Positions 2,835-45,125 of a DNA stretch of 45,125 bases are shown piece by piece (within the stretch, counting starts at the first letter, position 1; each line of letters starts with the position of its first letter). The notes under the pieces were generated by a model. It saw only the letters and a list, made by a program, of their open reading frames with translations, did not search any database and was not told where the DNA came from. The DNA is taken from the IMG/VR virus record IMGVR_UViG_2703718832_000003, one strand, 5' to 3'. A program made the position numbers and the translations under genes. This DNA comes from a virus. Its lineage: Duplodnaviria; Heunggongvirae; Uroviricota; Caudoviricetes.

Positions 2835-5741
2835 TTATGCCTGAGTACGCAGCGCTTCAAGGCGGCGCAGGTCGAAGTCGTTCAGTTCGTCGGTGTAGTC
2901 AGCAGTGATTGGCGCTGGCCATTCACCTGTGTCGAATCCGGTTGCGATATTGCGCATCGCTTTGCGGTACTCGAGCATACCCAGCTCCAGTAGTTCAGCG
3001 GATGCCTCGATGATGGCGATCCAGTGGTAGTTCTCGTCTTTGTTGACGAAAATCCAGAAGAACTGATCCAGCGCTGCGGTTTCGCAGTACATAGCCGCGC
3101 TCAGGTGATAATCACGTTCAATAATTTCCCGGTGTAGCCTGGCGCGCAGGCTTTCCTGCTTAACATTCCACATGCTGATGGTTTTCAGGTCTGCACCTAT
3201 ACGCACGCCATCCAGGTCGATCTCAAGGTCAGGGCGCACACGAACTTCCAAGCCCGTCTCCTCGTCAAAACCAAAGTAGCTCACCTCAACGGCTCGGCTA
3301 GGGTGGGTCAGCAGCATGCCGGCGGTCGGGTGTGCCAGAAGCGCTTTTTGAATATTCAGCGCGGTGCTCAGCTGCTGGCGGGTGACCAGCACTTTTCCTT
3401 CCGGGTTATCGCGCCAGGCATCCAGCAGTTCGTCGGCAAATACGGCATCTGGTTTGACTGCCTTCACGGCCTGGATCATGTCTGCTTTGGTACCGGACAC
3501 TTTCAGTGGTGCCGGTTTCTGTGCTTCCTGAGCCACAAGGTCAGGGTTGATGATTGCCAACTGCTCCAGCAGCGCGTCACGGCTGCCGCTGGTTTTAACC
3601 GGCGGCGGCAGGGTGGCGTTGTACTCTTTAATGCATGCCTTCATTGCCGTCGCCGTCTGCTTCTGGTCACCATCAATACGCTGGAAGTCAGCTGGCAGCG
3701 CCATATAGTTCTGTGCCGTTTCTTCCAGGTTAGCGCCAAGCGGAACCTGCGGCGGCAGGGTGGCGTTGTACTCTTCCAGTAACACCTTGATGTCGTCGGC
3801 AGACAGCAGCGCCGGCAGGCTGGCATTGTGCTCATCGATAAAGGCGCGCAGGGTCGCGGCCGTTGTGAATGCGCCTTCAGGGATCACCGGTTCAACGCTG
3901 AATTCTGCGTCCAGTAGTTCAGGCTGCAACGCCAGCGCATGCACCAAGTTGCCCATGTCCAGCACCGCTGAGCGCTCTTTGACGATGGTTTTCTCTACGT
4001 GGCGCGCATTGAAGTACATCAGCGAAACGCGCGCATCTTTCACCTGGGTTGAGCTGATGCCGTTGGCGGCGTGGTAAACCTCGTTTGGCAGCCCTTCATA
4101 GCGGCCTGGCTCGAAATAAGCGGGATAAACAACAGCTGGTTCGTCAGATTGCGCTTCTGGCTCGGTTTGTGCTGCAACTGGTTCGGTTTGGCTTACAGAA
4201 TCGCTATTTTTGGCGACAGAATCCGTATTCTGGTCTACATCGTCCTTCTGGCTGGTATCTGACTCTTCACCAGACTCCAGACTGCTTTCGCCTGGCTGTA
4301 CTTCATCACCAGCTTGTTTTTCATCACTGACAGTTTCTTGAACCTGCACATTGCTGGTGGTCTCCGTAGCCTTTTTCGTGCCATGAGTTGCTGAGTTCTG
4401 CAGCAAAGCCGTAACGTCGAATATTCCGTTGCCGACATTTTTAACCAGTTCTTGTTCGACTTTCTGCGGTTGTGCTGCCGCTTCCTCTGCGCGGCGGCGT
4501 GCTCCTTCTTCACGCACGCGTTGCAGGTTCTCTTCGTGAGTGCAGAAGGATTTGCGCGGAGACTCCTTACCTTCAGGTTGGGGAATTTCCTGTGCTGCGG
4601 GTTCAGCCTCATGCAACGGCAATAACTCGACCGCGGAATTGAACGCGGCTGTCATGGTCTGGTTAACAAATTCCAGGTGAGCGACAGGAGTTAAATGAAT
4701 ATTTTCCGGTGCGATACGTACCAGGTTAAAAATAGCCGTGCGGTTAACACCCAGAACGCCTGGCTGATTGCGCAGGATGTTGCTCCATGATTTCCATGGT
4801 TCTTCTTTTTTGGTCACGATTTCTTTAGCGCGACGAAGAATGCTGCCCGGGATCTCGAAGTGGTTGAAGTCCATAGGCAGAAGGGCACACGCAATCTCTA
4901 AATCGAGAGTGTCCAGTGTGTGGTGTGCGTCAGGTCCACGGTCAGTGACGTAACCGCCGTCGGCATTAGTGCCGGAATCAGTACGCTGCACACTACTGAT
5001 GCGATTACCGGCGGCCCATTCACGCGCCAGGATGCCACGGTCAATGTAATCAGTCGCCGCCCACATTCTGGTGAAACGGAGTACCAGCGCGAGTTCGTGA
5101 CGCTTGTCCTGGCTGAACACTTTGCGAATGGCATCGGTGTAGCGCCACAGGTCTTTGGTGTCGTAACCCTTCACTTCCGGGCAGTTCTCAGCAGCTAACA
5201 GCAAGTTCTGGACGTAACTGTTATCAGTGTCCATCTCCAGCGCGCCGATAGCTTCGTACTCTTCGTGGGTTACGTGGTGGCGCAGTTCGTCGGCGGTGAA
5301 CTGGGAAAGCAGTTGCTTACGAAACGGCATCTGCACTACCGGGTAGAGGGTTGAGTCGTCGTCGTGTTCGTCCAGCGTGATGCCAGCGGTTTCTGGCAGC
5401 GTTGACTCAGTAGTTATGTGACTATCAACGGTCTGAGCCGTTTTCTCGTCAGAGTTTTCAGCTGTGACTTTTGGCAGCCAGGTGCGCCCATCGTCCTGAA
5501 GCTCGTAGCGATCACACCAGGTAAAATCAACTTCACCTTCTTTCGGCAGGCCGTCGACAACTGGGAAATCAGTGCGAATCGGTTTGGCGTAGTCCTTACC
5601 CCGACCTGTTTCGATACCTGCATCTTCCAGCGCAACATCCAGCATCAGATTGGCGCGAGCCTCGGTTTTAGCAGTGAACCAGACCACTGCATCTTGCTTT
5701 CCGGATTTCTGAGTGGCTTTAACCACATTAAAGAATTCCAT
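2835..5741 (-). CDS. recE: RecE-like exonuclease VIII (long N-terminal region plus C-terminal nuclease domain)
   Basis: 968-aa ORF directly upstream of recT; long acidic/Ser-rich disordered middle region and conserved-looking C-terminal domain, as in Rac-type RecE. Contains an internal repeat encoding EYNATLPP twice. Confidence 0.65.
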   Translation of the reverse strand: MEFFNVVKATQKSGKQDAVVWFTAKTEARANLMLDVALEDAGIETGRGKDYAKPIRTDFPVVDGLPKEGEVDFTWCDRYELQDDGRTWLPKVTAENSDEKTAQTVDSHITTESTLPETAGITLDEHDDDSTLYPVVQMPFRKQLLSQFTADELRHHVTHEEYEAIGALEMDTDNSYVQNLLLAAENCPEVKGYDTKDLWRYTDAIRKVFSQDKRHELALVLRFTRMWAATDYIDRGILAREWAAGNRISSVQRTDSGTNADGGYVTDRGPDAHHTLDTLDLEIACALLPMDFNHFEIPGSILRRAKEIVTKKEEPWKSWSNILRNQPGVLGVNRTAIFNLVRIAPENIHLTPVAHLEFVNQTMTAAFNSAVELLPLHEAEPAAQEIPQPEGKESPRKSFCTHEENLQRVREEGARRRAEEAAAQPQKVEQELVKNVGNGIFDVTALLQNSATHGTKKATETTSNVQVQETVSDEKQAGDEVQPGESSLESGEESDTSQKDDVDQNTDSVAKNSDSVSQTEPVAAQTEPEAQSDEPAVVYPAYFEPGRYEGLPNEVYHAANGISSTQVKDARVSLMYFNARHVEKTIVKERSAVLDMGNLVHALALQPELLDAEFSVEPVIPEGAFTTAATLRAFIDEHNASLPALLSADDIKVLLEEYNATLPPQVPLGANLEETAQNYMALPADFQRIDGDQKQTATAMKACIKEYNATLPPPVKTSGSRDALLEQLAIINPDLVAQEAQKPAPLKVSGTKADMIQAVKAVKPDAVFADELLDAWRDNPEGKVLVTRQQLSTALNIQKALLAHPTAGMLLTHPSRAVEVSYFGFDEETGLEVRVRPDLEIDLDGVRIGADLKTISMWNVKQESLRARLHREIIERDYHLSAAMYCETAALDQFFWIFVNKDENYHWIAIIEASAELLELGMLEYRKAMRNIATGFDTGEWPAPITADYTDELNDFDLRRLEALRTQA

Positions 5742-37186: not shown

Positions 37187-40100
37187 ATGGCTACTTCCAC
37201 TCCGATTAGAGGCCGCAAGGGCGGCAGTTCCAGTTCCCGTACCCCTACAGAACAGCCAGACGATCTCCAGTCCGTAGCGAAGGCCAAGATTCTTGTTGCG
37301 CTGGGAGAAGGGGAATTTGCGGGGCAGTTAACGGCTAAAGATATCTATCTTGACGGCACGCCACTGGAGAATGCAGACGGATCGCAAAACTTCAGCGGCG
37401 TGGCATGGGAGTTCCGCCCGGGGACTCAGGCTCAAAAGTATATTCAGGGCATCCCCGGTACCGAGAATGAAATCAGCGTAGGTACCGAAGTTTCAAGCGC
37501 TACGGCCTGGACGCATACCTTTACCAACACCCAGCTGTCAGCCATTCGTCTGCGCCTCAAATGGCCATCACTGTTTAAACAGGAGGACGACGGCGATCTG
37601 GTCGGCTATTCGATTAATTACGCTATCGATCTGCAGACAGATGGCGGTACCTGGCAGACCGTGCTTAATACCAGCGTCACCGGGAAAACCACGTCAGGCT
37701 ACGAACGCAGCCACCGTATCGACTTACCGCAGGCGGGAAGCACCTGGACGGTACGTCTTCGTAAGCTCACCGCAGATGCGAACAGTGCGAAAATTGGCGA
37801 CACGATGACGCTGCAGAGCTACACGGAGGTAATCGATGCCAAACTGCGCTATCCAAACACCGCGCTGCTGTACATTGAATTCGATTCAAGCCAGTTTAAC
37901 GGCTCCATCCCGCAAATTTCCTGTGAACCGCGCGGGCGCGTTATCCGCGTGCCGGATACTTACGATCCGGAAACCCGGACCTATAGCGGTACCTGGACGG
38001 GGGCGTTTAAGTGGGCATGGACGGACAATCCGGCGTGGATTTTTTACGATCTGGTGGTGAGCGACCGTTTTGGACTTGGCGACCGCCTGACGGCGGCAAA
38101 TATTGATAAATGGACGCTTTACCAGGTCGCACAATATTGCGATCAGCTGGTTCCTGATGGTAAAGGCGGTAGCGGCACCGAGCCTCGCTATACCTGTAAC
38201 GTGTACGTGCAGGAGAGGAATGACGCCTATACCGTGTTACGTGATTTTGCGGCGATATTCCGTGGCATGACGTACTGGGGCGGCAATCAAATCGTTGCAC
38301 TGGCAGATATGCCCCGCGATGTTGATTACAGCTACACCCGCGCTAACGTGGTTGACGGCCGCTTTACCTATTCTGGCAGCACCACTAAAAACCGCTATAC
38401 CACCGCGCTGGTTTCCTGGTCAGATCCGGGTAATGCCTACGCAGATGCGATGGAGCCGGTTTTTGAACAGGAGCTCGTCGCTCGCTTTGGCACAAACCAG
38501 CTCGAGATGACAGCCATTGGCTGTACCCGGCAGTCTGAGGCAAACCGTAAGGGGCGCTGGGGGATTCAGACCAATAACAAGGATCGCATCGTATCGTTTG
38601 ATGTTGGTCTGGACGGCAACATTCCACAGCCTGGTTATATTATCGCGGTTGCCGATGAGCTGTTATCCGGAAAGGTGATGGGAGGGCGTATCAGCGCGGT
38701 TAATGGTCGCGTTATCACGCTTGATCGTGATTCCGCTGCCGTTGCCGGAAGCCGTCTTATGGTTAACCTGCCGTCTGGCGCATCGCAGAGCAGGACGATT
38801 CAGAGCGTAAACGGCCGGGCTGTCACCGTGACCACGGCATACAGCGAAACACCGGCAGTCGAATCGGTATGGATTGTCGAATCCGACGAGCTTTATGCAC
38901 AGCAATATCGTGTTATCAGCGTCTCTGATAATAACGACGGCACGTTTTCTATTACTGGTGCTTTTCACGATCCGGATAAGTATGCCCGTATCGATACCGG
39001 CGCCATCGTCGACCAGCGGCCAATAAGTGTAATTCCGCCCGGTAATCAGTCCCCGCCAGCTAATATCGCGATCAGTTCGTTTTCTGTCGTTCAGCAGAAT
39101 ATCAGCGTTGAGACCATGCGCGTCAGCTGGGACCAGGCGAAAAATGCTATCGCGTATGAGGCACAGTGGCGTCGCAATGACGGGAACTGGGTGAATGTGC
39201 CGCGCAGCTCCACCACGTCATTCGATGTTCCGGGGATTTATGCAGGACGCTACCTGGTTCGCGTGCGTGCCATCAATGCCGCCGAAATTTCATCTGGGTG
39301 GGGCTATTCAGAAGAGAAAACGTTGACGGGTAAAGTGGGAAACCCACCGAAGCCGGTTGGCTTCATCGCTTCTGAAAACGTGGTATTCGGTATTGAGCTG
39401 AACTGGGGATTCCCGGCGAATACCGAAGACACGCTGAAGACGGAAATTCAGTACAGCCTGACCGGTACTGAAGACGATGCCATGCTGCTGGCCGATGTGC
39501 CTTACCCGCAGCGCAAATATCAGCAGATGGGCCTTAAGGCTGGGCAGATTTTCTGGTACCGCGCGCAGCTGGTGGACCGCAGCGGCAACGAATCAGGGTA
39601 CACAGAATGGGTGCGAGGACAGGCCAGCATCGATGTTTCCGATATCACAGATGTGATTCTGGAGGAAATTAAAGACTCCGATACGTTCAAAGACCTGATC
39701 GAGAACGCGGTGGACAGCAACGAAAAAATTGCTGGCATGGCTAACGATATCAAACAGGCCAACGACGAACTGGAGCAGCAAGCGAAAGATATCGCCAAAA
39801 ATGCCCAGGACGTCGGGAAGGTTCAGACCAGCGTTAATGAGCTTTCCAGCACGGTCGGGAATGTTTCGTCTTCACTCAGTCAGCTTGAGCAGACCGTTGC
39901 GACGGCTGATACCGCCCTGGGCCAGCGAATCGACAACATCAGCGTTTCTATGGACGGCATGACGGGCGGGGTGAAGAACTCTGCAATTGCGATTATTCAG
40001 AATGGGCTGGCGCAGGTGGTAAGCCGTCGCTCGCAGACCGCCACGAACGGCGGGAACAGCGCCAGTATAGACAGAGTGGATACTACAATTGCCGATGCCA

Positions 40101-40735
40101 GCCAGGCGGTCGCGCGCGCGCTGGTCACGCTGGATGCAGAAGCTGGTGGCAATATCTCTAACTCAACGGACCTGACAGAAACTCTTGCTGATTTCACACA
40201 GGCATCGGCGACAAAAATTAACACCCTGACTGTTAAATCTGGCGAAAACAGCGCCGCGATAAACGTCAACGCACAGGCTATCGCAGATGTAAACGGTAAC
40301 CTCAGTGCCATGTACAACATCAAGGTGGGCGTAACCAGTAACGGGCAGTATTACGCTGCCGGGATGGGGATTGGGGTTCAGAATACACCCTCCGGCATGC
40401 AGTCACAGGTAATATTCCTGGCCGACCGATTTGCTGTTACCACTGCTGCCGGAAACAGCGTGGCGTTACCATTTGTGATCCAGAATGGTCAGACGTTCAT
40501 CAGGGCCAGCTTCATTCAGGACGGTACCATTGAGAACGCCAAAATCGGTAACTATATCCAGTCGAATAACTATGTGGCTGGCTCTGCAGGCTGGAAACTT
40601 GATAAGGGGGGCACCTGGGAAAACTACGGCAGCGACGGTCAGGGAGCAAGAAAATCCACCAATGTCACTGACAGTATCAGGGATTCAAATGGCGTGCTCC
40701 GCGTGCAAATCGGCAAACTTACAGGGGTGTTTTGA
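37187..40735 (+). CDS. J: Host specificity protein J (central tail fiber / tip attachment protein)
   Basis: 1182-aa ORF in the canonical position, lambda J-like N-terminal two-thirds. Confidence 0.9.
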   Translation: MATSTPIRGRKGGSSSSRTPTEQPDDLQSVAKAKILVALGEGEFAGQLTAKDIYLDGTPLENADGSQNFSGVAWEFRPGTQAQKYIQGIPGTENEISVGTEVSSATAWTHTFTNTQLSAIRLRLKWPSLFKQEDDGDLVGYSINYAIDLQTDGGTWQTVLNTSVTGKTTSGYERSHRIDLPQAGSTWTVRLRKLTADANSAKIGDTMTLQSYTEVIDAKLRYPNTALLYIEFDSSQFNGSIPQISCEPRGRVIRVPDTYDPETRTYSGTWTGAFKWAWTDNPAWIFYDLVVSDRFGLGDRLTAANIDKWTLYQVAQYCDQLVPDGKGGSGTEPRYTCNVYVQERNDAYTVLRDFAAIFRGMTYWGGNQIVALADMPRDVDYSYTRANVVDGRFTYSGSTTKNRYTTALVSWSDPGNAYADAMEPVFEQELVARFGTNQLEMTAIGCTRQSEANRKGRWGIQTNNKDRIVSFDVGLDGNIPQPGYIIAVADELLSGKVMGGRISAVNGRVITLDRDSAAVAGSRLMVNLPSGASQSRTIQSVNGRAVTVTTAYSETPAVESVWIVESDELYAQQYRVISVSDNNDGTFSITGAFHDPDKYARIDTGAIVDQRPISVIPPGNQSPPANIAISSFSVVQQNISVETMRVSWDQAKNAIAYEAQWRRNDGNWVNVPRSSTTSFDVPGIYAGRYLVRVRAINAAEISSGWGYSEEKTLTGKVGNPPKPVGFIASENVVFGIELNWGFPANTEDTLKTEIQYSLTGTEDDAMLLADVPYPQRKYQQMGLKAGQIFWYRAQLVDRSGNESGYTEWVRGQASIDVSDITDVILEEIKDSDTFKDLIENAVDSNEKIAGMANDIKQANDELEQQAKDIAKNAQDVGKVQTSVNELSSTVGNVSSSLSQLEQTVATADTALGQRIDNISVSMDGMTGGVKNSAIAIIQNGLAQVVSRRSQTATNGGNSASIDRVDTTIADASQAVARALVTLDAEAGGNISNSTDLTETLADFTQASATKINTLTVKSGENSAAINVNAQAIADVNGNLSAMYNIKVGVTSNGQYYAAGMGIGVQNTPSGMQSQVIFLADRFAVTTAAGNSVALPFVIQNGQTFIRASFIQDGTIENAKIGNYIQSNNYVAGSAGWKLDKGGTWENYGSDGQGARKSTNVTDSIRDSNGVLRVQIGKLTGVF

Positions 40736-41037
40736 TGTCATGGGGTATACAAACATGGGATGCGTCGGGTAAACCCAACAACTACGGTATCAAGCCAGTT
40801 TCAGTTGTTGGGCGTATACAGCTGGCTGCCGGACAAAACTCCGGCAGTTGGTCTTTCGCGATGCCCTCAGGAATGAAGGTCGGCTTTGTGCTCTCACTTG
40901 ATGAAGGTGGAAACAGCGTAGGGAGGCGCATTGTCGCGTCAGGGAACACAATAACCGTAACCGCTGCCTCTTCTGTAGGCCTAGGTAATTACCCGGCCTC
41001 TAAGTGTGAGGTGATCGTTTTCATGGAGAAAGTATAG
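40732..41037 (+). CDS. Hypothetical protein downstream of J (contains WDASGK motif)
   Basis: 101-aa ORF, stop/start overlap with J and with the next gene; motif IQTWDASGKP. Confidence 0.4.
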   Translation: MMSWGIQTWDASGKPNNYGIKPVSVVGRIQLAAGQNSGSWSFAMPSGMKVGFVLSLDEGGNSVGRRIVASGNTITVTAASSVGLGNYPASKCEVIVFMEKV

Positions 41038-41711
41038 TGTCTGACTTTGGCGCAATGATATTAATGGAGAACGGCAATCCCTTTGTTACACCACAATCAA
41101 CGCCTTTCTGCCTCTACGGAAAATACTCCTTCAATTCCTCAGCTAATGGCAGCTCTCAGCAGGTGGCGCAATATCTTTCGGTTCCTGACGATTATCCGGC
41201 AATGGTCTTCATAAAAACGACTAATACTGCGCAGCCGACCCCGGTCATTTCATATCGGATTGGAGGAAATGTCTATATTAGTGGCGTAAATCCCTATAAC
41301 CAGGGCTTTACGCTGACAGCATATGTATTTGCAATTTTTCCGCAAACACTTCCCGCGTGGGGATTTGCTATCTGGGATGCCTCCGGGAAGCTTGTTCTGA
41401 CGAACGAATCAAGGGTGCTTTCTGATCTGCAAACAGTGGGCACGCCAGGTGCAAGCGGCGGGATTAATATTGACCAGACGCTGAGCGGGTCATGGGCTGT
41501 TGCGCCTGCTCAGTTGGGTCAGACCATCATTGTGAATAATTCAACCAAGCCTCCGACTATCTACACGATAAATGCTTATTCTTCATGCAGGTTTGACGGG
41601 GCCAATACGAGGATAAACGCAGGGGGGACCTCCACTGGGGCAGGTTCACCTGGAGGGGGAACGAATACTGGCATTTCATTAACCGCCATAAATACAGCGG
41701 CCTATGATTGA
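41037..41711 (+). CDS. Hypothetical protein (contains WDASGK motif)
   Basis: 224-aa ORF; motif FAIWDASGKLVLTNE echoes the upstream gene; Gly/Thr-rich C-terminus. Confidence 0.4.
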   Translation: MSDFGAMILMENGNPFVTPQSTPFCLYGKYSFNSSANGSSQQVAQYLSVPDDYPAMVFIKTTNTAQPTPVISYRIGGNVYISGVNPYNQGFTLTAYVFAIFPQTLPAWGFAIWDASGKLVLTNESRVLSDLQTVGTPGASGGINIDQTLSGSWAVAPAQLGQTIIVNNSTKPPTIYTINAYSSCRFDGANTRINAGGTSTGAGSPGGGTNTGISLTAINTAAYD

Positions 41712-41822
41712 TTGATCGTTTTTAGCGATCAATAACATAATATTGATCTATCCAATCAATTATACCCACCAGAATTGTATTGGTATCGTCTAAGATACTG
41801 AATTCCTCTGGATACTATCAAA

Positions 41823-42056
41823 ATGAGAAAACTGATTATCTGCATGGCAGGCGCTGTCATGCTTACAGGATGCGCTGGCGTAATTGAGAAACAGGAACCA
41901 GTTTGCAGCGGCACTGCAATCGTTGGCGGTCAGGAAACTACGGTTCAGATTTACGGTGTGCGTAAACAAAACAACCAGACGCAGTACCGGGCTGGATATC
42001 CTTTCAGCTGGCGCTGGGTAAGTGCGAATACATTTACCGAAACAACCTGCAAATAA
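41823..42056 (+). CDS. Small lipoprotein, Cor-like superinfection-exclusion candidate
   Basis: 77-aa ORF with signal peptide and lipobox (MRKLIICMAGAVMLTGCAG); sits between J and the side tail fiber, the position of cor in related phages; followed by a terminator. Confidence 0.45.
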   Translation: MRKLIICMAGAVMLTGCAGVIEKQEPVCSGTAIVGGQETTVQIYGVRKQNNQTQYRAGYPFSWRWVSANTFTETTCK

Positions 42057-42077
42057 CCCACTACGCTTAAACATAAA

Positions 42078-42100
42078 CCTCGCTCCGGCGGGGTTTTTTT
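42078..42100 (+). terminator. Intrinsic terminator after the Cor-like gene
   Basis: CCTCGC-TCCG-GCGGGG stem-loop (one G-U pair) followed by seven T. Confidence 0.6.
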
Positions 42101-42116
42101 ATTGCCTGGAGAAAAT

Positions 42117-43685
42117 ATGCTTTATAACACCGGCACCATCGCCATTAATGGAAATACCGCCACCGGGACGGGTACAAACTGGACGGAACCGGCCAGCCAG
42201 GTCCGCGCTGGCCAGACGATTATCGTGATGTCTAACCCGGTGCAGCTGTTTCATATTTCATCCGTGAACAGCGCCACGTCAATGACGGTTACGCCTGCCG
42301 CTTCCCCGGCGCTGAGCCGCCAGAAATACGCCATTCTGGTGTCAGACATTATCTCCGTGGACGGACTGGCCCAGGCAATGTCGCAGCTCATCAAAGAGTA
42401 TGACGAGAACATTGGCGCGTGGGAGACGTTCGCCACTACCTCAGCAAACCAGACCATCACCGTTACCATCAACGGAACCTCCGTTAATATTCCAAGTATT
42501 GGCGCGCTTGCCAGAAAGGGGTCCAACAGCGATATCACCGAGCTGAAAGGGCTCACTACTGCGCTGTCTATTGCACAGGGCGGGACTGGGGCAAAGACCG
42601 AAGCTGACGCTCGCGCAAACCTCGGTTTAGGATACGGCACCAAAGCGGGCACTGTAGCCCAGGGAAATGATGAAAGGCTGAACACCGTCAATGGTAAATC
42701 AGGAGGAAATGTTACCGGCAGTTTGATGGTAACTCAGGGTAGCAGCATTGGCGTATCTACTCAGGAAGGTGGTGATAAGACTGTAAAGCTATACAACATT
42801 ACAGGGGATGGGACTGTCGGAGGTTATGTAAACGCCGTGGGAGGTGCCTGGTATAACGGGAACTGGTCTCTTGGCGGCGTTCGGGGGAGTGGGACTAATT
42901 TAGACAGAGCGCAGTTAAATGTTAATAGCGGAACTGGTACCGCGGGTTCATTTTTATTTTACCACGATGAGAGATTCAAATCATCTTCGTGTGGAGCTGA
43001 TGGGGCTGGTTATGGTGGCTCATGGTTAGACATTAACACATGGCAAAGAAATATCTCTTTTTTCCGAGGTAACGTATCAGTTAATAATGATGCAGGGTTT
43101 ATTCCCTTTGCCCGTTGGCATAGTCAATGCAGTGGTGGATATTCTTCAACAGTAGGGCTTGGTTCTATAGCTACCGGGCCTAGTTCGTGGGCGGATGTAG
43201 CAATAATAACGCTCGGGGATGGTGGTTCTTCCGGGAAACGTTTATTTCAATTCACGACAGCAAACGGTGATATATACGCTAACGCTGGTGGAAATATTTC
43301 CGGTAACTATATTTTCCAGAAGCAGCCTAACTGTGACATTACGCTGAAGCACGATATTAAATATGATGATGGTTATCAGTCATACGAGAATATCAAAAAA
43401 TTTCTGCCAGCAACTTACGTCTACAATGATGACCCTCGTGAGAGAGTTCGCCGAGGCGTAATTGCTCAGGACGCGATGAAGATTGACAGTGAGTACGTCA
43501 AACTGGTACCTGCATCACCGGCGTTCGACAGTGAAGGCAACAGGATTGATGCTGATGATACGTTGGCGCTTGATACGAACGTCATTATGCTTGATACCGT
43601 GCTGGCCCTGAATTACGTCATCAAGAAGCTGGAGGCTACACAGAACGAGCTGGAGGAGATTAAGCAAAAAATAGCGGCATCATGA
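42117..43685 (+). CDS. Side tail fiber protein with invertible C-terminal part and S74-like intramolecular chaperone
   Basis: ATG at 42117 (track ORF begins at TTG 42102); N-terminus MLYNTGTIAINGNTATGTGTNWT...; C-terminus ...DAMKIDSEYVKLV...LALNYVIKKLEA...; a crossover site lies inside the gene. Confidence 0.75.
   Translation: MLYNTGTIAINGNTATGTGTNWTEPASQVRAGQTIIVMSNPVQLFHISSVNSATSMTVTPAASPALSRQKYAILVSDIISVDGLAQAMSQLIKEYDENIGAWETFATTSANQTITVTINGTSVNIPSIGALARKGSNSDITELKGLTTALSIAQGGTGAKTEADARANLGLGYGTKAGTVAQGNDERLNTVNGKSGGNVTGSLMVTQGSSIGVSTQEGGDKTVKLYNITGDGTVGGYVNAVGGAWYNGNWSLGGVRGSGTNLDRAQLNVNSGTGTAGSFLFYHDERFKSSSCGADGAGYGGSWLDINTWQRNISFFRGNVSVNNDAGFIPFARWHSQCSGGYSSTVGLGSIATGPSSWADVAIITLGDGGSSGKRLFQFTTANGDIYANAGGNISGNYIFQKQPNCDITLKHDIKYDDGYQSYENIKKFLPATYVYNDDPRERVRRGVIAQDAMKIDSEYVKLVPASPAFDSEGNRIDADDTLALDTNVIMLDTVLALNYVIKKLEATQNELEEIKQKIAAS
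42610..42635. promoter_or_regulatory. Left inversion crossover site (gix/hix-like), inside the tail fiber gene
   Basis: CTCGCGCAAACC-TC-GGTTTAGGATAC; the AAACC-NN-GGTTT core and GTATCC half-site match the Gin/Hin-family site pattern; core dinucleotide TC at 42622-42623. Confidence 0.5.
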
Positions 43686-44498
43686 ATCCTGAGCATTCAA
43701 CTGCAGCCCGTTCCGGAAAATTACGGGCTGCAAATTATTCAGCTTCCTTGTTCCAGTTTTTCAACCTTACTCGTCAAATTATCGACCCTAACCATTAGGG
43801 CCAGAATTGCCTCATGGTGCAAAGCTGCAGCAACCCCGTAAGTATCGACAGTTTTCACATCAGGAATAATAGTTCCGTCCTCCAGAGTAATATCATAGCC
43901 ACCTTTAACAGCTTCGGGAAATACTTGCTCAACGTCCTGTGCAATAAAGCCGTAACCAGTGGTTTCATTGTCTATACGCTCCCAAAAGCAGCCTTTAATG
44001 GCTTTCATCTTTGTGAGAGGATCGGATATGCGCGCGATGTCTTTTTTTATACGCGCATCTGAGAGTGATACCCATTGACCACCAGTGCCACGACCATCTG
44101 GGTAAAACATAAATGATGCTGCTGCCCCTCCAGATTCTGCCACCACATTTAACTGAACACGATCAAGTGGGGTAGAGCCGCTACGTATTGCACCAAACGC
44201 CCATGAACCGCTATACCACTTACCAATTATCTGATTAACATAATTCCCCTGAGATGGATCAGTGGTCGTATTATTCATCTCAATGGAGTTATCACCGCCA
44301 CTTCCCTTTCTGACCCCTAAACCACCACCGGCATTTGTATGCCAGTCAGTTGCTCCGCCGCCAACACCGTTGATTGTCACAGCAGATGAAATCGTTCCTC
44401 CTGATTTTCCGTTCACCGTACCCATGCGTGAATCATCCCCGGCCGCCACCGTTCCCGCCGCCGTTCCAACGTTCCTGGTGGCGCTGTTTCCCAAACCG
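42623..44498. mobile_element. Invertible tail fiber segment (G/C-segment-like host-range switch), about 1.9 kb
   Basis: Bounded by inverted gix-like sites with identical TC core when the right site is reverse-complemented; contains the 3' part of the plus-strand fiber gene and a startless inverted alternative; invertase gene immediately adjacent. Confidence 0.5.
43739..44494 (-). CDS. Alternative tail fiber C-terminal segment (no own start codon; expressed only after inversion)
   Basis: Open frame continues upstream to a stop at 44504-44506 with no ATG; first codons NVGLGN run through the right crossover site in the same frame relation as the left site; homologous to the plus-strand fiber (TVNGKSGG) and ends in a chaperone-like segment. 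Confidence 0.6.
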   Translation of the reverse strand: MGNSATRNVGTAAGTVAAGDDSRMGTVNGKSGGTISSAVTINGVGGGATDWHTNAGGGLGVRKGSGGDNSIEMNNTTTDPSQGNYVNQIIGKWYSGSWAFGAIRSGSTPLDRVQLNVVAESGGAAASFMFYPDGRGTGGQWVSLSDARIKKDIARISDPLTKMKAIKGCFWERIDNETTGYGFIAQDVEQVFPEAVKGGYDITLEDGTIIPDVKTVDTYGVAAALHHEAILALMVRVDNLTSKVEKLEQGS

Positions 44499-44511
44499 AC
44501 GTTTTATAGAT
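44486..44511. promoter_or_regulatory. Right inversion crossover site (gix/hix-like)
   Basis: Top strand GTTTCCCAAACC-GA-CGTTTTATAGAT; reverse complement ATCTATAAAACG-TC-GGTTTGGGAAAC matches the left site in inverted orientation. Confidence 0.5.
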
Positions 44512-44576
44512 TGCTCTCGAGCGGCCTGGCCGATAACTTCACCTGATTTTTTTGCAGAAATAACTGGGTGAAAAAT

Positions 44577-45125
44577 ATGCAAATTGGCTATGTCAGAGTG
44601 TCAACAAATGACCAAAATACAGATCTCCAGCGCCAAGCTCTCGAACGCGCAGGATGTGAACAGGTTTTTGAAGAAAAAATGAGCGGGACGGTAGCGAACC
44701 GGCCAGCGCTCAAAAAGCTTCTGCGGACTCTGAATGCGGGCGATACACTGGTGGTGTGGAAGCTGGACAGGATAGGCCGCAACGTTCTGCATGCGCTGTT
44801 GATGTTCCAGCAGTTACAGGAAAAGGGTATCAACTTCCGCAGTATTACCGATGGCGTGGATCTCAAAACAGCCAGCGGCCGCTATAACTTTCGTAACATC
44901 CTTTCCGCAGCACAATATGAATCTGATCTTAATAGCGAACGTACCTTAGCAGGGCTGGCCGTAGCCAGGGCAAAATGGCGAGTTGGTGGTCGCAGGCCTA
45001 AGTTCACGGATGAGCAATGGCGGGAAATGGGGGAGCGGATGGCAACCGGTGAATCACGACAAAGCGTATCAAAAACGTATGGAGTAGGGCTCTCAACTCT
45101 GTATAAAAAGTTTCCAGCTAGCTGA
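44577..45125 (+). CDS. Serine recombinase, DNA invertase of the Gin/Hin/Pin/Cin family
   Basis: ATG at 44577 in frame with track ORF 44568-45125; MQIGYVRVSTNDQNTDLQ... with catalytic Ser in the conserved VRVST motif; adjacent to the invertible fiber segment. Confidence 0.85.
   Translation: MQIGYVRVSTNDQNTDLQRQALERAGCEQVFEEKMSGTVANRPALKKLLRTLNAGDTLVVWKLDRIGRNVLHALLMFQQLQEKGINFRSITDGVDLKTASGRYNFRNILSAAQYESDLNSERTLAGLAVARAKWRVGGRRPKFTDEQWREMGERMATGESRQSVSKTYGVGLSTLYKKFPAS

Follow-up and report, generated by a model that had tools for sequence, protein, structure and literature searches.

Organization of the locus

The window, by which we mean the whole analysed stretch of 45,125 nucleotides, contains a complete tail module (J, Cor, and fibre) and belongs to a prophage whose integration site is yciI (phi80-type). 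At its right end, a constant 168-codon N-terminus of the fibre gene is followed by a 26-bp crossover site and variable cassette 1, and then by variable cassette 2, which lies tail-to-tail with cassette 1 on the other strand and starts at a second, inverted crossover site. The features of this region are as follows.

42117..42621, plus strand: N-terminal, constant portion of the gene for the side tail fibre, comprising codons 1-168 and base 1 of codon 169 (E about 1e-67 to 1e-69 to phrog_1591 and phrog_12714)
42610..42635, plus strand: left crossover site (gixL-like) within the fibre ORF, core TC at 42622-42623; 16/26 bases, among them the whole central AAACCTCGGTTTA, match Mu gixL when the two are placed in the same register
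42624..43685, plus strand: variable cassette 1, currently expressed as part of a 522-aa fibre; Peptidase_S74 at ~43332-43499, then a coiled-coil tail (PF13884, E=6.5e-9, residues 406-461)
43703..43731, no strand assigned: hairpin between the convergent cassettes, G+C-rich stem of 9-10 bp (fold -20.5 kcal/mol, z=-3.15)
43739..44497, minus strand: variable cassette 2, silent here, an intact 253-codon fibre C-terminus; Peptidase_S74 at about 43904-44062 (from frame, domain search, and homology to cassette 1)
44486..44511, plus strand: gixR-like crossover site on the right, core GA at 44498-44499, with the start codon of the invertase 79 bp further downstream; 15/26 bases identical to Mu gixR
44577..45125, plus strand: Gin/Pin-type serine DNA invertase of 182 aa with nucleophile Ser9, the last prophage gene before attR at yciI (phrog_125 DNA invertase, E=1e-74)
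44599..44661, plus strand: candidate recombinational enhancer within the 5' part of the invertase gene; the two Fis-consensus matches, at 44599-44613 and 44647-44661, are 48 bp apart

At the DNA level, the constant N-terminus, which is the tail-attachment part of the fibre, is 85-97% identical to the corresponding fibre regions of HK022, HK140, mEp390, and mEpX1. The exact 522-aa fibre is on record in E. coli, and cassette 1 matches the C-terminus of a T5-type L-shaped tail fibre (8hqz_d, E=5.7e-8). Full-length relatives of cassette 2 are common, and the homology of the silent C-terminus to the expressed one, which had been proposed in an earlier note on this DNA, holds with 39% identity over 147 aa (E=1e-27). 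The same note had described cassette 2 as lacking a start codon. Its own N-terminus is indeed absent, and in the minus-strand frame ('...SNL*NVGLGNSATRNVG...') a TAA stop stands immediately before it, with no N-terminal domain; however, the frame is not literally startless, as a TTG lies in frame within the crossover site and an ATG is found at codon 26.

The invertible segment, 42622-44499, measures 1,878 bp. Just two sites and two cassettes are present in the window, and thus only two states are available to it. The hairpin between the cassettes, which was missed by a simple terminator scan, is conserved in the related loci of L018, CX07, and CX15 and probably serves as a bidirectional transcript end or as a stabiliser. 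Because it is located inside the invertible segment, it goes with whichever cassette is expressed. A terminator upstream of the fibre gene was detected by the terminator scan, and the promoter scan yielded no convincing candidate for either the invertase or the silent cassette and none for the fibre gene.

Crossover sites and reading frames

The pair of inverted 26-bp sites with identical TC cores, on which the earlier note was built, was confirmed base for base. The left site, CTCGCGCAAACC TC GGTTTAGGATAC, has a perfect AAACC-NN-GGTTT centre, and the right site, GTTTCCCAAACC GA CGTTTTATAGAT, reads AAACG TC GGTTT on the minus strand, with one mismatch to this pattern beside the core. The asymmetric core dinucleotide is shared by the two sites and points in opposite directions. 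When the sites were aligned to published gix sites, the register, the TC/GA cores, and the left/right polarity proved to be those of Mu gixL and gixR. The outer half-site ATCTAT(A/T)AAACG adjoins the invertase in all relatives, and the two sites form the longest inverted repeat of the region (26 nt, 81% matched). The pattern by itself is not significant, with 2 matches to AAACCNNGGTTT at no more than one mismatch in 45 kb versus 1.28 expected. Since this count of the 12-bp pattern is near chance, we relied on context and relatives instead; in related 4.5-kb loci there are 3 pattern matches versus 0.12-0.17 expected, and 0 of 200 shuffles reached 3.

At the left junction, fibre codon 169 is C42621-T-C (CTC), and at the right junction the codon on the minus strand is GTC. 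As had been predicted, TC occupies codon positions 2-3 at both sites, and therefore the constant part would be joined in frame to cassette 2 upon inversion. Inversion of the segment in silico gave an in-frame 421-aa fibre identical letter for letter to a recorded E. coli protein, MDK7727059.1, which is a member of a 90%-identity cluster with 71 members. In principle, this fusion protein might come from a relative of the L005 kind, which is fixed and has no invertase.

Chaperone domains of the two cassettes

Both cassettes scored above the PF13884 cut-off of 22 bits, cassette 1 with 36.4 bits and cassette 2 with 49.8 bits. Work on endosialidase and MYRF has placed the autocleavage site of Peptidase_S74 at a Ser-Lys dyad with the spacing S-x4-K. 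Cassette 2 retains this motif at profile position 1 (S147 and K152, SDARIK). Cassette 1 has C406 and K411 (CDITLK), that is, a Cys where the autocleavage Ser normally sits, in 17/17 copies. The proposal that both alternative C-termini carry a chaperone-like tail holds at the level of the domain; self-chaperoning is well supported for the silent cassette, but for the expressed one it is only probable because of the Cys. That the system has no separate assembly gene was borne out, in that no tfa gene is present and the two cassettes fill the segment, where we found no further ORF with family matches (42624-44497). In the literature searched, we found no paper joining the Peptidase_S74 intramolecular chaperone with invertible cassettes, none combining tail fiber, invertase, and intramolecular chaperone, and none combining mEpX1 and invertase. 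It has been reported, however, that 'tail fiber domain-containing protein' is already among the enriched classes in predicted programmed inversions (PMC9881135).

Invertase and candidate enhancer

The Gin/Hin-type serine invertase expected beyond the right site is full-length and contains Pfam Resolvase (E=1e-38) and HTH_7 (E=1.6e-9) domains, and its residues 1-181 align end to end with the Gin structure 3uj3 (E=4e-62). It retains YVRVS(9)TNDQ with Ser9, Arg7, R42, and LDRIGR (DRxGR motif). In the collection, 1205 blocks contain the identical 182-aa protein in intact form. It deviates at three places that are conserved in Gin, Hin, and Pin: D33E (corresponding to Tn3 D36), Arg to Ser in helix E (Tn3 R119), and Gly to Trp. 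The Trp stands in the 'AKWRVGGR' motif, at a position occupied by Gly in mEpX1 and Gin. In Tn3 resolvase, R119A is active while D36A and D36N are inactive, D36E being outside the assayed set (PMC2794168).

The two Fis-consensus matches are at gene positions 23 and 71, and a pair at the same positions, near-identical in sequence, is present in Mu gin, the CX07 invertase, and mEpX1. A pair of this kind occurs in 1.3% of shuffles. The stretch also encodes conserved protein motifs, so that its conservation by itself is no proof of an enhancer.

Both arrangements occur in relatives

The inversion predicted in the earlier note is found among relatives, in which both orientations lie beside the same invertase with the predicted combinations of half-sites. 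When the segment was flipped in silico, the window aligned colinearly and without gaps to six loci (L026, L027, L028, L030, L032, and L033; 96.3-99.7% identity), whereas in its native form it aligned to them only in pieces, with the middle one reversed. In one of these, L030, the 1.9-kb segment is flipped at 99.57% identity, with the same invertase and the same yciI site. The predicted recombinant sites, ATCTATAAAACG TC GGTTTAGGATAC and GTTTCCCAAACC GA GGTTTGCGCGAG, occur exactly in the flipped loci. Furthermore, in L018 and L019, both of which encode the identical invertase of the window, one and the same pair of cassettes is arranged in opposite ways. The two exact copies of the prophage that were found (L009 and L010) are both in the window's orientation. 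This layout recurs in the free-living phage mEpX1, whose invertase is nearly identical; CX07/CX15, L013, L014, L029, L031, and L025 contain three sites and three cassettes in several arrangements; and L012 and L015-L017, which carry the same invertase as the window, are clearly locked, with a degenerate site that has no partner.

The flipped loci L026-L033 were reached through a 69-aa tail ORF of the silenced cassette 1 that is on record; the 319-, 320-, and 282-aa versions callable in that cassette were absent from protein records. No complete E. coli genome had a record covering at least 80% of 42102-45125, and hence no flipped sibling could be obtained there. An IMG/VR scan with the predicted 46-nt recombinant junction gave 2 matches, which are not decisive: the junction of L024 runs into a 528-aa fibre, indicating that the first ~40 nt past the core are a shared linker. 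The same scan with the native junction gave no match.

A detailed record of an exchange came from an E. coli clone of ST635 (CX04/05/07/15), whose sister prophage at yciI encodes an invertase protein 100% identical to that of the window. CX15 inverted core to core in silico equals CX07 over 4401 nt except for one base, which lies in the core dinucleotide. The core states at this locus are TC/AA, TC/GA, and TT/AA, that is, the parent plus the two segregants, one per strand, that a 2-nt staggered exchange should leave, and the exchange was mapped to an 11-bp interval containing the core. In a second prophage of the clone, at yejM, a 2023-bp segment is exactly inverted at 100% identity. This segment is flanked by perfect 71-bp inverted repeats, and for that reason the crossover there cannot be placed more precisely. 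Because the CX strains carry two different invertases, inversion in them is not assignable to the identical enzyme. Taken together, these comparisons show that inversion as predicted does take place in this family of loci.

Discussion

In this study, we found that the region 42117-45125 very probably forms the right-hand end of an E. coli prophage resembling HK97/HK022, with a working-type Gin/Pin inversion switch for the side tail fibre tip. The inversion mechanism is a textbook one (Mu, P1, and e14), known since phage Mu, and the locus is a real but ordinary example of it. In the proposed scheme, the invertase, encoded 79 bp beyond the right site, would bind both sites, most likely assisted by host Fis on the candidate enhancer in the first 90 bp of the invertase gene. 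Both duplexes would be cut at the central TC/GA with a 2-nt stagger through Ser9, and one pair of half-sites would be rotated by 180 degrees and then religated. As a consequence, the 1,878-bp segment 42622-44499 would be turned around, the 421-aa fibre would replace the 522-aa fibre, and cassette 1 would become the silent copy. By analogy to endosialidase and T5 pb1, Peptidase_S74 may fold the trimeric tip and then cut itself off; as the chaperone domain is borne by the cassette itself, no tfa/U-type assembly gene would have to travel with the cassettes. A population of lysogens would then release virions with either of two tips, a form of bet-hedging on adsorption specificity.

The G segment and Gin of Mu are among the closest known systems. 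In both, a constant fibre N-terminus is combined with alternative C-termini by inversion, the sites are 26 bp long, centred on AAACC-TC-GGTTT and of equal left/right polarity, the right site is immediately followed by the invertase gene (at a distance of 67 bp in Mu and 79 bp here), and Fis-like site pairs lie at the same gene positions. Beyond the central 13 bp, however, gix and the sites described here have little in common. Mu is a myovirus, whereas the fibre here is a side fibre of an HK97/HK022-like siphovirus, and the Mu segment is 3 kb long with a separate chaperone gene (U or U') for each cassette, in contrast to 1.9 kb with a fused Peptidase_S74. A U/Tfa gene per cassette is typical of Mu, P1, and e14, but it is not defining for the mechanism. 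Like this prophage, the lambdoid or temperate E. coli elements e14 (P/Pin, PinQ/PinR) and P1 (C/Cin) use an adjacent Din-family invertase to swap fibre C-termini in frame, and inversion in this class has been detected in ordinary cultures (PMC4272514). Unlike the segments of e14 and P1, which carry tfa-type genes, the present one is followed by an invertase, and in this apparently complete prophage no other gene lies between the invertase and attR. The relatives with three sites and three cassettes, as opposed to the two of the window, resemble Min of p15B and the 'shufflon' of an EPEC P2-like prophage, the latter with three repeats and three C-termini (PMC4272514). The Peptidase_S74 domains in both cassettes recall endosialidase tailspikes and the L-shaped fibre pb1 of T5, with S-x4-K shared by cassette 2 and a Cys in place of the Ser in cassette 1. 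The locus belongs with Mu G/Gin, P1 C/Cin, and e14 P/Pin, and is carried on an HK97/HK022-like prophage.

The earlier note regarded the locus as a tail fiber host-range switch. The structure was verified and the predicted inversion occurs in relatives, while flipping in the present lysogen and an effect on host range are what we infer. The siphovirus tail is of the J type, the fibre in question is its side tail fibre, and a Cor exclusion gene is present. It is more likely that the switch modulates adsorption specificity than that it determines the host in an all-or-none manner.

Whether the present prophage still flips deserves particular consideration. The unusual D-to-E, R-to-S, and G-to-W substitutions, together with the essential role of D36 in Tn3 resolvase (PMC2794168), might mean that this invertase variant, or the slightly degenerate right site, is inactive, and that the two orientations in relatives reflect earlier activity or were produced in trans by other invertases. 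Din-family invertases can act in trans (PMC12529663), the CX strains do contain a second invertase, the locked relatives carry the same invertase as the window, and both exact copies of the prophage share its orientation. Nevertheless, the identical protein is kept intact in all of its 1205 blocks, both cassettes and both sites are intact, and the D-to-E change is common to both CX invertases, yet both CX segments have been inverted. Moreover, the segment is flipped elsewhere at 99.6% identity and the exact fusion protein is on record, which implies that divergence since the last flip is very small. We therefore consider a frozen architecture quite improbable in comparison with a working switch.

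It is also conceivable that the alternative fibres serve the bacterium rather than the host range of the phage, for example by masking receptors against other phages. There is a precedent in the PinQ-driven inversion of the e14 P segment, which generates a fibre chimera (StfE2) that blocks T2 adsorption (PMC12529663), and the naturalised or clinical E. coli background and the very wide distribution of the invertase would fit such a role. However, the window has a complete tail module, a near-identical system is found in the viable phage mEpX1, and the terminator before the fibre gene and the lack of a detected promoter give no sign of fibre expression from a repressed prophage, which makes a bacterial function highly unlikely here. 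General (RecA-type) homologous recombination between inverted repeats, which may explain the CX yejM locus with its 71-bp perfect repeats, is rejected as the least probable of these alternatives for the window and for the CX yciI locus. RecA could not efficiently use a repeat as short and imperfect as that of the window, and at CX yciI the 11-bp crossover interval, the single differing base in the core dinucleotide, and both strand segregants are the footprint of a 2-nt staggered cut.

Because the mechanism is already textbook knowledge, the main value of the locus is practical. In public records, the silent cassette and the crossover sites are unannotated; the cassette is labelled as a pseudogene or as a truncated 'tail fiber domain-containing protein', and in mEpX1 a spurious ORF on the wrong strand overlaps it. 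Contigs often break at the invertible segment during assembly, and host or receptor prediction based solely on the fibre gene covers only half, or a third, of the tip repertoire. For engineering, cassettes that bring their own chaperone, with a defined 2-bp crossover and a fixed codon phase, are attractive natural parts for tip swapping. The CX sister isolates with both strand segregants represent a rare natural footprint of the 2-nt staggered cut of a serine invertase.

A broader idea, which we consider unlikely, is that these cassettes, each consisting of a tip and a self-removing S74 chaperone behind a 12-bp crossover core and a short shared linker (GLGNSATRNVG...), are compact plug-in modules. 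Loci contain one, two, or three cassettes, the same 1.9-kb cassette pair is found in two prophage families at two attachment sites with two different invertases, and exchange is seen even between sites with unequal cores. On this reading, the Cys-type variant of Peptidase_S74 could also represent a distinct self-processing chemistry. If the modules were freely portable and any Din invertase present in the cell could act on them in trans, the prophages of a polylysogen might exchange fibre tips with one another.

Fiber cassettes and crossover sites

The switch at the end of the window consists of the following elements.

42117-43685, plus strand: tail fiber ORF, 522 aa
42610-42635: left site, CTCGCGCAAACC TC GGTTTAGGATAC, within the fiber ORF
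42624-43685, plus strand: cassette 1, the expressed fiber C-terminus
43703-43731: G+C-rich hairpin between the convergent cassettes (z=-3.15)
43739-44497, minus strand: cassette 2, the silent alternative C-terminus
44486-44511: right site, GTTTCCCAAACC GA CGTTTTATAGAT, at the head of the minus-strand frame
44577-45125: serine invertase

An earlier note, made from the sequence alone, had described these as two inverted sites with an identical core, one inside the fiber ORF and the other at the 5' end of a minus-strand ORF for the alternative C-terminus, and this description was borne out. Both sites carry one asymmetric dinucleotide in opposite orientation, and at the right site, which has one mismatch to AAACC-NN-GGTTT, the minus-strand frame reads '...SNL*NVGLGNSATRNVGTAAG...', that is, a stop followed by 253 open codons down to 43739. 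The 12-bp pattern by itself is not significant in 45 kb. No other inverted repeat in the region is as long as the pair of sites, and a pattern of the AAACC-NN-GGTTT type was found again in every relative examined. Aligned to published gix sites, as the note had proposed, the left and right sites agree in register and polarity with Mu gixL (TTATCCAAAACC TC GGTTTACAGGAA) and gixR. The core occupies codon positions 2-3, being the TC of fiber codon 169 (CTC) and of the minus-strand codon GTC, so exchange at the core preserves the frame (...ARANL|GLGNSATR...) and gives the in-frame fusion that had been proposed. Flipping the window in silico, by reverse-complementing 42622-44499, predicts the junctions CTCGCGCAAACC-TC-GGTTTGGGAAAC and ATCTATAAAACG-TC-GGTTTAGGATAC.

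The alternative C-terminus is homologous to that of the fiber (39% over 147 aa, E=1e-27), and each ends in a Peptidase_S74 (PF13884) domain, the chaperone-like tail noted earlier. No tfa/U-type gene lies within the invertible segment, and its role would be taken by the S74 domains. The S-x4-K motif is present in cassette 2 (SDARIK) and is replaced in cassette 1 by CDITLK (fiber residues 406-411, window 43332-43349, QPNCDITLKHDI), the Cys of which aligns with Pfam position 1 and with the Ser of a T5-type fiber. This Cys at the usual autocleavage-Ser position is conserved in 17 of the 17 522/528-type cassettes seen (the window, L002, L003, L009-L011, L018, L019 and L025-L033 among the related loci retrieved for comparison); other cassette types retain Ser there. 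The hairpin between the cassettes inverts along with them and would therefore terminate either transcript. Codon 26 of the silent cassette is an in-frame ATG (minus strand, 44414-44425) with GGGGA about 9 nt upstream, and gene callers accordingly give shortened proteins of 123-251 aa, which would be missing the domain for attachment to the tail.

Inversion among relatives of the window

Four comparative lines of evidence indicate that the switch family of the window inverts, and does so at the dinucleotide predicted in the earlier note. The 421-aa product of in-silico inversion is, letter for letter, MDK7727059.1 of E. coli, whose 90% cluster has 71 members; a fixed 421-aa fiber without invertase is also on record (L005). 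The flipped loci L026-L033 were reached via a 69-aa ORF that gene callers report in the silenced cassette 1. The in-silico flipped window gave gap-free, colinear alignments with them that cross the junctions, whereas the native window aligned piecewise with its middle piece reversed, and the half-sites in these loci are combined exactly as the window predicts. The L030 segment, 99.57% identical to that of the window, is flipped and adjoins the invertase, also at yciI. Moreover, L018 and L019 encode an identical invertase protein and the same cassette pair in opposite arrangements. Several short-read contigs (L030-L033) break within or beside the invertible segment; such breaks are expected from mixed orientation and indirectly support ongoing inversion in those samples.

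Four E. coli chromosomes with a prophage at the yciI site (L012, L015, L016, L017) encode the same invertase protein and a 413-aa fiber. No recognisable site was found in this fiber, and only a degenerate site lies beside the invertase, its partner being absent; these look like locked or orphaned relatives.

Core-to-core inversion in the CX clone

On sequence comparison, the most direct evidence for inversion comes from the E. coli sister isolates CX04, CX05, CX07 and CX15, one meat-plant clone of ST635, O10:H25 (PMC11169474), with genome lengths that differ within 17 bp. The invertase of their yciI prophage (L020-L023, L034; NZ_CP0817xx, about 2,815,500-2,820,000) is 100% identical to that of the window, and the expressed fiber has 412 aa in CX15 and CX04 and 446 aa in CX07 and CX05. 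When CX15 is reverse-complemented core to core (2315 bp), the 4401 nt compared match CX07 at all but one base, the first of a core dinucleotide.

Core dinucleotides of the yciI prophage switch in the CX isolates
CX07, CX05: beside the invertase TC; in the fiber AA
CX15: beside the invertase TC; in the fiber GA
CX04: beside the invertase TT; in the fiber AA

An exchange model with a 2-nt 3'-overhang and a CX07-like parent with unequal cores predicts a top-strand daughter with TC/GA, as in CX15, and a bottom-strand daughter with TT/AA, as in CX04. The CX isolates are thus the parent and both strand segregants of one inversion between unequal cores, and their core pattern is the footprint of serine-invertase chemistry with a 2-nt staggered cut. 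It corresponds to the 'localized conversion' that Iida and Hiestand-Nauer reportedly described in 1986 for P1 Cin. These segregants locate the crossover at the very dinucleotide first named, and they show that unequal core dinucleotides were no bar to exchange in this case. In a second CX prophage, located at yejM/tRNA-Pro and with three sites and three cassettes, a 2023-bp segment is exactly inverted between CX07 and CX15. Din invertases can act in trans (PMC12529663) and the CX strains encode two distinct ones, so the CX inversion is not assignable to one enzyme.

The invertase and a candidate enhancer

The Gin/Hin-type serine invertase that had been recognized after the switch aligns to Gin over residues 1-181 (E=4e-62), with Ser9 present. 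Its residues corresponding to Tn3 D36 and R119 are Glu and Ser, and its motif AKWRVGGR has Trp where mEpX1 and Gin carry Gly. Among Tn3 resolvase mutants, R119A is active, and D36A and D36N are dead (PMC2794168). Glu at the D36 position is common to both CX invertases, and the segments of both were inverted, which argues for tolerance of this change.

The invertase gene contains two Fis-consensus matches, at its positions 23 and 71 and thus spaced 48 bp; a pair at this spacing occurred in 1.3% of shuffles. The pair is shared, in position and almost entirely in sequence, with Mu gin, mEpX1 and the invertase of CX07. In Din invertase genes the enhancer is located inside the gene, and the placement of the pair fits a candidate enhancer of this kind. 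Since the stretch codes for conserved residues too, its conservation is no proof of an enhancer.

Prophage setting and related systems

The switch region makes up the right end of an HK97/HK022-type lambdoid prophage, in which these genes precede the fiber and invertase genes.

37187-40735: J-type tip protein
among the genes before the fiber: two small conserved proteins
41823-42056: Cor superinfection-exclusion lipoprotein (phrog_1119, E=7e-37)

The DNA of the fiber N-terminus is 85-97% identical to that of HK022, HK140, mEp390, mEpX1 and others. A contig of E. coli GCA_014420755.1 carries window 41000-45125 unchanged, and in it the invertase is the final phage gene and is followed by yciI-yciA-ispA-yciC-ompW-trpA; the yciI locus is the phi80-type attachment site. 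A strong terminator-like hairpin lies after cor (42075-42096), 20 bp 5' of the fiber start codon, so fiber expression presumably requires late-gene antitermination.

The switch functions like Mu G/Gin, P1 C/Cin and e14 P/Pin. With the Din family it shares the small serine recombinase, the inverted pair of sites with one asymmetric core and the occurrence of both orientations among relatives, and it has a candidate enhancer. Unlike these systems, it is compact, is carried on a siphovirus side fiber, and has its chaperones fused rather than separate. The three-cassette relatives of the locus resemble the EPEC prophage 'shufflon', which has three repeats (PMC4272514). Every PF13884-bearing relative in our protein search is named 'tail fiber domain-containing protein', and predicted programmed inversions are already known to be enriched in proteins of this name (PMC9881135). 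The layout is the same in the isolated phage mEpX1 (L001, NC_019709.1, 3486-5617), which has a site in the fiber, a second, inverted one at 4985, and a nearly identical invertase annotated as 'DNA invertase Pin-like protein'. On the minus strand, the silent cassette of mEpX1 has no annotation and is apparently frameshifted, and gp25, a hypothetical gene annotated over it on the other strand, is probably spurious. No paper on the mEpX1 switch was found in a literature search.

The whole two-cassette segment of the window (1888 nt, 99.5% identity) also occurs in a prophage that differs from this one and has another attachment site, in L002/L003 and in two metagenome contigs with the yejM/tRNA-Pro prophage (L029, L031). 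There, a third cassette of the Phage_tail_C_2 type is added, a third site lies immediately 3' of the fiber stop codon, and the invertase is different from that of the window. Cassette sets evidently move between prophages. The system of the window may act as a 'host-range switch'; given the J-type tip and the Cor gene, the fiber probably tunes adsorption and is not the sole decider of infection.
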